A stretch of 4,268 bases of DNA from a virus (lineage: Duplodnaviria; Heunggongvirae; Uroviricota; Caudoviricetes), in the IMG/VR virus record IMGVR_UViG_2698536571_000008; one strand, 5' to 3'. Shown here piece by piece: positions 1-4,268 of the stretch. Position numbers and translations under genes: made by a program. A model generated the notes under the pieces. It was given only the letters and a program-made list of their open reading frames with translations. It did no database searches and was not told the DNA's origin. Numbering within the stretch: the stretch's first letter is position 1; each line of letters starts with the position of its first letter.

Positions 1-51
1 GGGGAATATCTCCCCGGCAGCCTTCAGGGAAAAATATCATCAGATGGCTGC

Positions 52-405
52 TTAAAAAAAGAACAAATGGTAGTGTCCGCTATTGCCAGTACACCTCAAT
101 TGCTCTGCGGCTTCGCTCAGAGCTGGCGTATGTTCCCGGCCTACTGATTCACACAGGTAATCAACGAAACCGGACACCAGTTTTCGTTCGCGAGGCGTGA
201 TCGCCCCACCGACCGGAGTCCAGTAATCGAAACCCAGTTGCAGGAGTTTGAAAAAACGCTTGTGGAATGCGTAGTTACACACACGCTTAAAGTCTGCGTG
301 TATCCACTCACCTATTTTGATTTGATGCAGAAAATCGCAACTCTCCGGCGTCGCCGGGAGAAGTAATCCGGAAGAGGTTTGTTTGACCAGTTGTATATGT
401 GCCAT
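52..405 (-). CDS. Hypothetical phage protein, about 117 aa from the ATG at 405. The ORF track's 131-aa version starts at a TTG at 447.
   Basis: Open frame 52..447 on the minus strand with TAA stop at 52-54. The internal ATG at 403-405 is preceded by GGAG with a 7-nt spacer (minus strand CCGGAGAAAGCCG-ATG), whereas the TTG at 445-447 has no Shine-Dalgarno. I do not recognise the family. Confidence 0.45.
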   Translation of the reverse strand: MAHIQLVKQTSSGLLLPATPESCDFLHQIKIGEWIHADFKRVCNYAFHKRFFKLLQLGFDYWTPVGGAITPRERKLVSGFVDYLCESVGREHTPALSEAAEQLRCTGNSGHYHLFFF

Positions 406-980: not shown

Positions 981-1136
981 TTACTTCCTGGATTCGTAGT
1001 CTACGAAGACAGCGACCTCCGTCTGGCCGGTTCGGATTCGTACCTCACAGAGGTCTTTCCTCGTTACCAGTGCCGTCACTATGACGGTTAAACAGATGAC
1101 GATCAGGGCGATTAACATCGCCTTTTGCTGCTTCAT
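981..1136 (-). CDS. hok: Hok/Gef-family type I toxin (51 aa small membrane peptide)
   Basis: Translation MKQQKAMLIALIVICLTVIVTALVTRKDLCEVRIRTGQTEVAVFVDYESRK has the Hok signature: a single transmembrane helix, the TRKDLCEV motif and the conserved C-terminal region. It is very close to E. coli HokC/HokD as I remember them, with a different C-terminal tail. ATG at 1134-1136 is preceded by AGGAG with a 9-nt spacer; TAA stop at 981-983. Confidence 0.85.
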   Translation of the reverse strand: MKQQKAMLIALIVICLTVIVTALVTRKDLCEVRIRTGQTEVAVFVDYESRK

Positions 1137-1193
1137 AGCCTGCTTCTCCTTGCCTTTCGGCATGTAAGAGGCTAACCTACATGTGCAAAGCAT
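981..1193 (-). CDS. mok: Mok-like regulatory reading frame (70 aa): an in-frame N-terminal extension of hok
   Basis: ATG at 1191-1193 is preceded by GAGG with an 8-nt spacer. The N-terminal extension MLCTCRLASYMPKGKEKQA resembles the MokC extension (MLNTCR...KEKRAMKQHKAM) as I recall it, and is in the same frame as hok. Confidence 0.55.
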   Translation of the reverse strand: MLCTCRLASYMPKGKEKQAMKQQKAMLIALIVICLTVIVTALVTRKDLCEVRIRTGQTEVAVFVDYESRK

Positions 1194-1256
1194 GAAATTG
1201 GCCTCAGATTAATGTTAAGCGTCTTGCCGGACGCGTAATGTTAACTGGGGCTTTTC
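1185..1256 (+). ncRNA. sok: Putative Sok-like antisense RNA covering the mok translation-initiation region
   Basis: Inferred from hok/sok locus architecture. Plus-strand candidate promoter: -35 TTGCCT (1150-1155), 17-nt spacer, weak -10 TAACCT (1173-1178). Plus-strand stem 1201-1207 with 1245-1251 (one G-U pair) is followed by TTTT at 1252-1255. The transcript would be about 70 nt and complementary to the mok SD and start. Boundaries are approximate. Confidence 0.3.
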
Positions 1257-1312
1257 TCTATCTGCCTTTTGGTGTTCATGCCTGAAGCAGATAGCCTCAA
1301 GCACCCGCAGTC

Positions 1313-2069: not shown

Positions 2070-2263
2070 NNNNNNNNNNNNNNNNNNNNNNNNNNNNNNN
2101 NNNNNNNNNNNNNNNNNNNNNNNNNNNNNNNNNNNNNNNNNNNNNNNNNNNNNNNNNNNNNNNNNNNNNNNNNNNNNNNNNNNNNNNNNNNNNNNNNNNN
2201 NNNNNNNNNNNNNNNNNNNNNNNNNNNNNNNNNNNNNNNNNNNNNNNNNNNNNNNNNNNNNNN
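2070..2263. other. Run of 194 N (masked or unsequenced)
   Basis: Directly visible. ORFs in the track that cross it (poly-X) are uninterpretable there. Confidence 1.
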
Positions 2264-2766: not shown

Positions 2767-3356
2767 CTACTTAACAACCCTCGAATGGCTAACATTCGGA
2801 CGCCAGCTCTCCCAGTTAAAATTCACCCAGCGCCCGCCGTTCATGACCATGCGATCCATCACCCGCTCGCCGAGCAATGTTTTCATCACCTCATAGTTCA
2901 GGTTTGTCAGCATCCCCACGCTGCGCATCGACGCTGTCCGGCGATCAACAATCTGGTGCAGCACCACCTGCTCGTTTTTCGTCTCGCGCTGAATGCCAAT
3001 TTCATCAAGAACCAGCAGATCCACTTCGCACAGCTCCCGCAAAAATTTTTCGCCTGACTGCCCGTCGTCATAGCTGGCGTGCAGGGCGCTCATAACATCA
3101 GCCACGGTAACCACAATCACTGTCTGACCGTCTTTCAGCAGGCGATTCCCGATAGCTGCCGCTAAGTGATTCTTCCCGGTACCAGGTTTTCCGCTGAACG
3201 CAAAATTTGTACACCCGGTCATCAGTTCATCGGCGATGGATTTCGCCTGGCTTAACGCGTATCGCTGGCCGTCGTTCTGCACCTGGTAATTCGCAAACGA
3301 GCATTTACGGTGCAACGGCTGGATGCCTGAGCGATTCAGAATTTTTTCCACCCGCA
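2767..3356 (-). CDS. DnaC-like helicase loader (AAA+ ATPase, phage P-like/IstB-like), partial: the N-terminal ~55 codons lie in the N block
   Basis: Walker A FSGKPGTGKNHLAAAIG and Walker B LLVLDEIG. Strong resemblance to E. coli DnaC: NRSGIQPLHRKCSFANYQV matches DnaC FNRSGIRPLHQNCSFENYRV, and GERVMDRMVMNGGRWVNFNWESWR is also shared. Stop codon at 2767-2769. The GTG the ORF track uses as a start (3349-3351) aligns to an internal DnaC position. Confidence 0.85.
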
Positions 3357-3560
3357 NNNNNNNNNNNNNNNNNNNNNNNNNNNNNNNNNNNNNNNNNNNN
3401 NNNNNNNNNNNNNNNNNNNNNNNNNNNNNNNNNNNNNNNNNNNNNNNNNNNNNNNNNNNNNNNNNNNNNNNNNNNNNNNNNNNNNNNNNNNNNNNNNNNN
3501 NNNNNNNNNNNNNNNNNNNNNNNNNNNNNNNNNNNNNNNNNNNNNNNNNNNNNNNNNNNN
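3357..3560. other. Run of 204 N (masked or unsequenced), hiding the 3' end of the replication-initiator gene and the 5' end of the DnaC-like gene
   Basis: Directly visible. Confidence 1.
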
Positions 3561-3818
3561 CGCGAACAGGCCCTGGTATTCATTGGCGATGCTGTGTCGA
3601 ATCACCTGCTCAGGTGTAAAACCCTGCTGACGGAATTTTTCCAGTTCCCGTATCGCCCCGTTAGCGCCCTGCTCCGTTCGAATCGGTTTTCGCAATGCCT
3701 GTCTGAACCGGACCCACTCATGCCAGAGTGTTTCCGGCAACCAATCGGGCAGCTCAATAGCCTCCGGCTCGAATTTTTTAGACGCTCGTTTTTGGCGAGG
3801 GGGAGATCAGTATTTAGA

Positions 3819-3863
3819 TCTTCCTCTTCCTCTTCCTCTTCCTCTTCCTCTTCCTCTTCCTCT
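3819..3863. repeat. Perfect hexanucleotide tandem repeat (TCTTCC)7.5, which on the minus strand is (GAGGAA)n encoding Glu14 in the linker frame
   Basis: Seven complete TCTTCC units plus TCT, counted base by base. The plus-strand reading (poly-Ser in ORF 3207..3878) is the antisense artefact. Confidence 0.95.
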
Positions 3864-3966
3864 GGTAACGCTTTTTGATCCGTTTGTGTAACGCTGGCAG
3901 CGTTACCTTTTCGTTTCAGTTCGCGTATTTTTGTTACTCGCTCGTTTGTAACCGCCCGTTTTTTTT
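3864..3966. other. Iteron-like repeat cluster plus T-rich tract inside the replication-initiator linker region; candidate phage replication origin
   Basis: 19-bp palindrome GTAACGCTG-G-CAGCGTTAC (3888-3906). Further GTAAC(G/C)C or GTTAC-containing copies at 3865-3871, 3933-3941 and 3948-3955. Recurring CGTTTGT(G)TAAC at 3881-3892 and 3942-3952. T8 tract at 3959-3966. Confidence 0.3.
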
Positions 3967-4171
3967 AGAGCTTTTTCCGTTATGACGTTCAAAGTTAGGT
4001 AGAGAAAGCCCTCCGTCATTTTCGACCAGCCATCCAACCTGAATTAACGCATCAGCAAAACCAGACATAAAAGTGATGCGATCTATTGCACTTTTTGTAA
4101 CGCCGCGAGCGTTACAATCTGCATTACCGTCTATCATTTGTTGATCCGCCCATGCCCAGAAGCGAATAACC

Positions 4172-4268
4172 TGAGGTAGCCTGAGTTTAACGGACACTCC
4201 TTCCTGAAATAGAATGGCATCAGAAGGAGCTAATAATGAGCAGAAAAACCCAACGTTACTCTAAAGAG
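4172..4268 (+). mobile_element. Left end of an IS3-family insertion sequence (IS600-like), partial; continues beyond the window
   Basis: Terminal sequence TGAGGTAGCCTGAGTTTAACGGACAC starts with TG and has a GGACAC box about 20 nt in, as in IS3-family left inverted repeats. The orfA start lies 64 nt inside the end. The N-terminal peptide MSRKTQRYSKE fits the IS3-family OrfA pattern (basic residues, then Y/F-S-x-E-F-K). Confidence 0.5.
4236..4268 (+). CDS. IS3-family transposase OrfA, first 11 codons only
   Basis: ATG at 4236 is preceded by AAGGAG (4223-4228) with a 7-nt spacer. Translation is MSRKTQRYSKE and the frame is open to the window edge. Confidence 0.45.
   Translation, partial: MSRKTQRYSKE

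Follow-up and report, generated by a model that had tools for sequence, protein, structure and literature searches.

An IS600 insertion and two repeat-associated frameshifts in a probable ydaU-family replication-initiator gene of a Rac-like Shigella sonnei prophage

Reading frames and insertion sequences at the locus

The window, that is, the entire 4,268-nt stretch of DNA that was analyzed, is the remnant of a prophage with a similarly oriented IS600 copy on either side, and its minus strand carries, adjoining one of these copies, a gene remnant that is spread over three reading frames (Table 1). The window was read whole and translated in all frames, and all coordinates of the three-frame layout proposed in an initial annotation of this DNA were confirmed. 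The first frame extends on the minus strand from the window edge to the TAA at 3934–3936, close to an A8 tract (T8 on the plus strand, 3959–3966). The −1 frame opens within the A8 tract, straight after a TAA that overlaps the start of the tract on the minus strand, and stays open through a basic linker and 14 Glu codons, reading KKRAVTNERVTKIRELKRKGNAASVTQTDQKALP and then Glu14. The next −1 frame begins by the TGA at 3807–3809, beside a C5 tract at 3799–3803 (G5 on the other strand), and reads SPPRQKRASKKFEPEAIELPDWLPETLW..., given also as SPPRQKRASKKFEPEAIELPDWLPETLWHEW.... The C5 tract does not end the middle frame, which is open as far as 3602. When the translation was recomputed with one A and one C added, a single ORF was recreated, as the initial annotation had claimed. 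Position 3561 is merely the edge of an N-run (3357–3560), under which the last ~28 codons of ydaU are hidden.

Table 1. Features of the ydaU remnant and of the IS600 copies at the two edges of the window
Feature	Coordinates	Strand	Basis
ydaU remnant, from gene nt 105 onward, in three frames	3561..4171	-	Alignment with intact alleles; PHROG 2509 and PHROG 6451
Frame 1, N-terminal domain segment (intact residues ~36–108), then out-of-frame NGRLQTSE and TAA 3934–3936	3937..4170	-	Translation; PHROG 2509 E = 3e−36
Frame 2 (−1), basic linker and Glu14	3809..3964	-	Translation
Frame 3 (−2), DnaT-like C-terminal domain segment	3561..3806	-	2RU8 E = 3e−5; PHROG 6451 E = 2e−26
A8 tract, first frameshift (A6 in intact alleles)	3959..3966	-	Alignment
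GAGGAA hexamer tandem repeat (×7.5), encoding Glu14; copy number varies	3819..3863	-	TRF
Single TCCCCCT left by a 10-bp deletion, second frameshift (ancestral TCCCCCTAAATCCCCCT)	3798..3804	-	Alignment
Perfect 19-bp palindrome GTAACGC-N5-GCGTTAC in the linker-coding region	3888..3906	.	Conserved at +368 in intact loci
Second copy of GTAACGC-N5-GCGTTAC in the N-domain-coding region	4097..4115	.	Conserved at +161 in intact loci
Left end (IRL) of the IS600 inserted in ydaU, with the orfA start ATG at 4236	4172..4268	+	Repeat match; IS600 identity; GGT duplication
Right end (IRR side) of the IS600 copy lying to the left of the window, truncating a DUF1367 gene	1..98	+	Identity to L030, L085, and L091

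Homology to ydaU ends at window position 4172, and bases 4168–4268 match a highly repeated element that is 99.5–99.8% identical to loci annotated as “IS3-like element IS600 family transposase.” The IS600 in ydaU is ~1,265 bp long, with the ends TGAGG...CCTCA and a 3-bp target duplication (GGT, ydaU nt 105–107), and the first 107 nt of ydaU are found beyond it in three relatives whose sequences reach further (L085, L087, and L091), indicating a simple insertion. The initial annotation had started the gene at 4197, but the GTG there lies inside the inverted repeat of IS600 and is not a gene start. The insertion, which removes the first 35 codons of ydaU and its promoter, is a lesion that was absent from that annotation. 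At the other edge of the window, positions 1–98/99 match the distal end of the IS600 copy in each of L030, L085, and L091 with 100% identity. The DUF1367 gene cut by this copy (52–447) covers only profile positions 1–102 of 198. A draft S. sonnei-type contig (L092) contains two copies of the remnant with the A8/IS600 junction, at ~6213 and ~10334, which suggests an IS600-mediated duplication or rearrangement of the region. The two N-runs in the window (2070–2263, 194 nt; 3357–3560, 204 nt) correspond to 476 and 253 nt, respectively, in the 100%-identical L030, L085, and L091; each is thus a mask or a gap whose length is arbitrary, and the second covers the ydaU stop and the ydaV start.

Gene family and domain architecture of the remnant

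The top DNA matches of the remnant were ydaU genes of E. coli Rac-like prophages. The 262-aa ydaU of this type (Escherichia phage Rac, MN652886; WP_001737256.1) shares ~90–96% nucleotide identity over the remnant, the gene order ydaT, ydaU, ydaV, and the succession of N-terminal domain, linker, Glu run, and DnaT-like C-terminal domain; the window copy differs in being interrupted by IS600, twice frameshifted, and expanded in its Glu array. The intact 262-aa homolog is named “phage replication initiator YdaU family protein” by PGAP, and its residues 1–262 cover positions 1–277 of 277 in the PHROG 2509 “replication initiation protein” profile (E = 4e−89). In the window, the N segment also matches PHROG 2509, and the C segment matches both PHROG 6451 “primosomal protein” (Table 1) and PHROG 2509 (E = 2.8e−9). 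The segments are true homologous pieces rather than chance ORFs. By descent, the window ydaU is a member of PHROG 2509 that has turned into a pseudogene, and an uninterrupted ORF of ~260 aa with its own start codon is not present.

The last 93 residues of the intact homolog (170–262) align with residues 92–179 of DnaT (primosomal protein I/replication restart protein), including PDW.P and the terminal NTVS.PDS.IPPGFRG, and match the DnaT C-terminal domain (2RU8/9ZBT) with E-values of 3e−5 to ~1e−4. When the window C segment was completed from L091, which is 100% identical, it matched 2RU8 at E = 3e−5, including the terminal PPGFRG. The initial description of the C-terminal domain as DnaT-like is borne out by these matches to 2RU8 and 9ZBT. 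Only this domain is common to DnaT and the ydaU product: in scans of the intact homolog and the window segments, the NCBIfam DnaT equivalog NF002770 reached 16.2 bits, over the tail only, against a cut-off of 201 bits. The ydaU-type protein is accordingly best read, from such profile comparisons, as a probable phage initiator with a DnaT-like module and not as DnaT itself.

For the N segment, the initial annotation had suggested a phage replisome-organizer domain. Pfam returned no family at E ≤ 0.01 for either the intact 262-aa homolog or the window segments, NCBIfam likewise yielded no family of replication initiators, and this candidate was excluded by the absence of matches to Phage_rep_org_N, Phage_rep_O, and DUF1376. 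The E. coli K-12-type YdaU (285 aa, L089:3176–4033) does contain DUF1376, and its N-terminal half is unrelated by BLASTP to the type studied here, which has neither DUF1376 nor any other Pfam match; in contrast, its C-terminal 124 residues, including the DnaT-like domain and PPGFRG, are 81% identical (compared with L002:3898–4686). The YdaU family is modular, with exchange of the N-terminal half at a joint that falls within the linker, the part of the gene in which the lesions are concentrated. A literature search turned up only passing mentions of ydaU.

Downstream, ydaU adjoins ydaV (2767–3351), which encodes a DnaC-like loader (403.6 bits to NF009043 and 270 bits to DnaC), and the ydaU–ydaV gene order of a lambdoid early-right operon is the same in four other loci (L001, L002, L003, and L093). 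Homology and this gene order suggest that the ancestral ydaU product would have served as a replication initiator.

Indels, their distribution, and alternative readings of the three frames

The closest intact allele is a 260-aa CDS of E. coli FDAARGOS_943, in which the gene order (cro-like, ydaT, ydaU, ydaV, DUF977, a hypothetical protein, and QueH) is the same as in the window lineage. In the alignment with FDAARGOS_943, the window lineage differs by the IS, two additional A, 30 nt of additional hexamers, a loss of 10 nt, and two base substitutions, and by nothing else. At the A-tract, the intact allele reads TCT AAA AAA CGG (A6), and two A have been inserted in the window to give A8. At the C-tract, the intact GATCTCCCCCTAAATCCCCCTCGCC has become GATCTCCCCCTCGCC through the loss of 10 bp between two direct repeats of 7 bp. 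The hexamer array comprises two GAGGAA units in FDAARGOS_943 and seven in the window, the five extra units being in frame. The initial annotation, which had the gene split at two homopolymer tracts, was right about the net frames, but the molecular history that it implied, with one A and one C missing, does not hold, since A6 became A8 and the second site is a 10-bp deletion. Two out-of-frame indels are all that lies behind the three frames in the ydaU remnant.

To place these differences in a wider context, related loci were collected by searching IMG/VR and the GTDB representatives with a gapped pattern that spans the A-tract; with three loci retrieved beforehand, the set comprised 84 loci. 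A single ORF of 260–264 aa ending in ...AIPPGFRG was present in 56 of them; together with the end-to-end match of PHROG 2509 to the intact homolog, this upholds the single-ORF ancestor that had been proposed. The A-tract was of normal in-frame length in 70 loci, A7 in four, A8 in eight, and A9 in two, and the 10-bp deletion occurred in 10/10 A8/A9 loci and in 0/74 others. No A7, A8, or A9 allele was found in 5,426 complete E. coli genomes, where the best match was 97.5% and had A6; the GTDB representatives yielded two loci only, both with A6 and a different, 11-bp deletion. GAGGAA units numbered 1–4 (usually 3) in intact relatives and 3–8 in the A8/A9 lineage. Among otherwise identical S. sonnei-type loci, there were three units in L030, L085, and L086, six in L087 and L090, seven in the window and L091, and eight in L015; the array behaves like a VNTR, and some of the low counts may represent collapsed short-read assemblies.

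A sequence of this kind could also arise from sequencing or assembly error, with true A- and C-tracts that are in frame and homopolymers that were under-called, as the initial annotation had allowed (A9 and C6 in the true sequence). Homopolymers are classic error sites, the two N-runs indicate that the record may be draft or masked, and the occurrence of both A8 and A9 among related assemblies implies that the length of the tract is either not fully stable or not always called correctly. However, the tract is longer than the A6 of the intact alleles, and two bases would have to have been added in error rather than one lost; the 10-bp deletion between the TCCCCCT repeats is beyond any homopolymer miscall, as is the IS insertion, and even a perfect A9 would leave both of these lesions in place. 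The 87-aa chimeric ORF, which requires A8 together with the IS junction and is named in the sources as an S. sonnei protein, was found on 492 contigs and in 481 collection blocks, among them several 4.8-Mb contigs, and one 4.8-Mb contig (L091) is 100% identical over all 708 bases of 3561–4268, including the seven hexamers. The combination of A8, the 10-bp deletion, and the IS junction was reproduced in six IMG/VR loci and in 8/8 NCBI loci examined. Because the exact allele recurs in hundreds of S. sonnei assemblies, an artifact is very unlikely; the exact count of eight A rests on the agreement between assemblies.

Recoding would offer another way out of the frameshifts: on this reading, either a −1 ribosomal frameshift at A_AAA_AAC or slippage during transcription of A8 would bridge the first site, and another shift at C5 would complete the full-length initiator. 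In the A8 allele, the zero-frame context is indeed A_AAA_AAC and the −1 frame opens within the tract, so the slippery pattern pointed out in the initial annotation, which ranked recoding as its least likely option, is real. Both processes have precedents, in a gene cluster of IS elements with A_AAA_AAC that has been described as a proven case of frameshifting (PMC4066793) and in runs of 8–9 A at which productive transcriptional slippage can occur in some bacteria (PMC1088944). However, the 56 intact relatives read AAA AAA CGG in frame and lack the heptamer, which is confined to the mutant A8 lineage; most loci have A6 here, longer runs (A7, A8, or A9) occur in disrupted alleles only, and no run of ~9 or more A/T is conserved at the frame junction. 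RNA folding gave no stem-loop 5–9 nt downstream of the slip site, ~50 nt there being unpaired or weakly paired, and the sole stable hairpin is a palindrome starting ~52 nt downstream; the z-score of the fold was a modest −2.2. Two successive low-efficiency shifts would be required, the CCCCC of the second site is no known efficient shift site, and IS600 has taken away the start codon and the promoter in this window. Slippage on A8 (PMC1088944) could at most correct the first site in a small fraction of transcripts from alleles without the IS, and the second site would stay. The lesions found in related lineages (an 11-bp deletion, C4, and A7) are also of other kinds and not homologous to these, which is the pattern of decay and not of a program. 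With the heptamer not conserved and no stimulator, recoding is an explanation to which we attach hardly any probability.

The IS600 junction of the window is shared by 6 of the 10 A8/A9 loci, and four loci (L032, L083, L046, and L079) have the indels with an intact 5′ end of ydaU; because of these four loci, the indels are older than the IS600 insertion. The pieces that remain after the insertion could in principle be functional, with the N-terminal domain and the DnaT-like domain now existing as separate, domesticated polypeptides. The 87-aa ORF is called by gene callers, the DnaT-like domain is largely contained in a TTG-initiated ORF (3336–3740), and natural exchange of the C-terminal module is seen in the K-12-type YdaU, which combines a different N domain with an 81%-identical C half. 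Nevertheless, the 87-aa ORF begins at a GTG in the IS600 inverted repeat and is missing the first 35 codons of the domain, no ribosome-binding site was seen by eye before the TTG at 3740, and the census of related loci contained no relative with a conserved, separately initiated C-terminal gene. Moreover, two point substitutions relative to the intact allele leave too little time for purifying selection on the pieces to show. We regard such a functional split as highly improbable.

The lesions of the window belong to a larger set. In five loci (S. flexneri SFBU1023 and four others; L004, L005, L047, L054, and L056), ydaU is independently frameshifted in its DnaT-like domain by the loss of 11 bp between direct repeats of GGGCG (GCAGGGCGCTAACGGGGCG to GCAGGGCG); these loci share the prophage backbone of the window, with flanks that are 99.6–99.7% identical to it. 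The ydaU of E. coli 2013C-4974 has C4 instead of C5 and carries the PGAP flag “frameshifted,” and A7 alleles occur on at least two, probably three, backgrounds. Altogether, 21/84 loci are disrupted, by at least eight independent lesions (A7, which arose on two or probably three occasions at the least, A8/A9, the 10-bp deletion, the 11-bp deletion, C4, IS600, and the truncated allele L011), and point substitutions are nearly absent. The A-run, the GAGGAA array, the TCCCCCT direct repeat, and palindromic candidate origin sites all lie in the linker-coding stretch of ydaU. This stretch might be a built-in hot spot for the recurrent loss of the initiator in resident Rac-like prophages, a loss possibly favored by selection on the host, as a taming of the prophage, and not a product of neutral decay, although we consider this idea rather doubtful.

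We therefore identify the remnant, with a probability of roughly 0.93, as a ydaU-family prophage replication-initiator gene that has been multiply inactivated in an IS-rich, Rac-like cryptic prophage of S. sonnei. It is an ordinary multi-hit pseudogene, recent and repeat-driven, and neither a case of recoding nor an assembly error; a functional initiator cannot be produced from this copy. Pseudogenization in a cryptic prophage, the first explanation listed in the initial annotation, is the correct one, as IS600, A8, and the 10-bp deletion show when set against intact alleles. The ancestral gene was a single ORF of ~260 aa, located directly upstream of the DnaC-like helicase-loader gene ydaV, and in its product the N-terminal domain was joined through a basic linker and a short Glu run to the DnaT-like C-terminal domain. 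The repeat context suggests slippage as the source of the indels: replication slippage would have lengthened the A-tract by two bases, stepwise from A6 to A7 to A8 and occasionally A9; the GAGGAA array would then have expanded by slippage with the frame kept; and a slipped-strand deletion would have taken out 10 bp between the two TCCCCCT direct repeats. Finally, IS600 entered at codon 35/36, and the remainder of the gene was thereby parted from its promoter and start codon as well as from the first 35 codons. All of these lesions are very recent, because point changes are almost absent.

Pseudogene formation driven by ISs and slippage is familiar from Shigella genomes, and the present locus, with an IS600 flanked by a 3-bp duplication and small repeat-mediated indels in a cryptic prophage gene, is a typical example of this known phenomenon with nothing unusual about it. 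The proper annotation is a single IS-interrupted, frameshifted ydaU pseudogene instead of an 87-aa “bacteriophage protein” and orphan ORFs, and beyond such annotation hygiene the significance of the remnant is small. The locus nonetheless provides a clean, datable case of gene death in an S. sonnei prophage, by repeat slippage and then IS600 with hardly any point mutation, and the GAGGAA array and the A-tract are possible minor typing markers.

Palindromes within ydaU and other features of the window

The sequence GTAACGC-N5-GCGTTAC occurs twice in the window (Table 1), compared with 0.01 occurrences expected by chance. In intact loci, three such palindromes are conserved in or just upstream of ydaU, at −31 from the ATG, +161, and +368, with a half-site at +404 (L002 positions); across these loci the arms are invariant and the spacers variable. 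In bacteriophage lambda, ori lies inside the O gene. The ydaU locus resembles lambda O in that the initiator gene is directly upstream of a helicase-loader gene, a low-complexity linker connects the N- and C-terminal domains, and palindromic sites recur within the coding sequence; in contrast, the ydaU-type protein has no detected similarity to the phage replication families of Pfam. By analogy with lambda, the palindromes are candidate initiator-binding or origin sites, and they offer a testable guess at the location of the origin of Rac-like prophages.

Elsewhere in the window, a hok/sok module is located at 981–1306. It consists of a hok-type toxin ORF (981–1193, minus strand), for which Pfam HOK_GEF matches the same gene in related loci, and a full-length match to the sok antitoxin RNA (RF01794, 117 bits; 1131–1306, minus strand). 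A prophage-borne gene for epoxyqueuosine reductase QueH lies at 1364–2040 (Pfam QueH, E = 2e−65) and is apparently intact up to the N-run.
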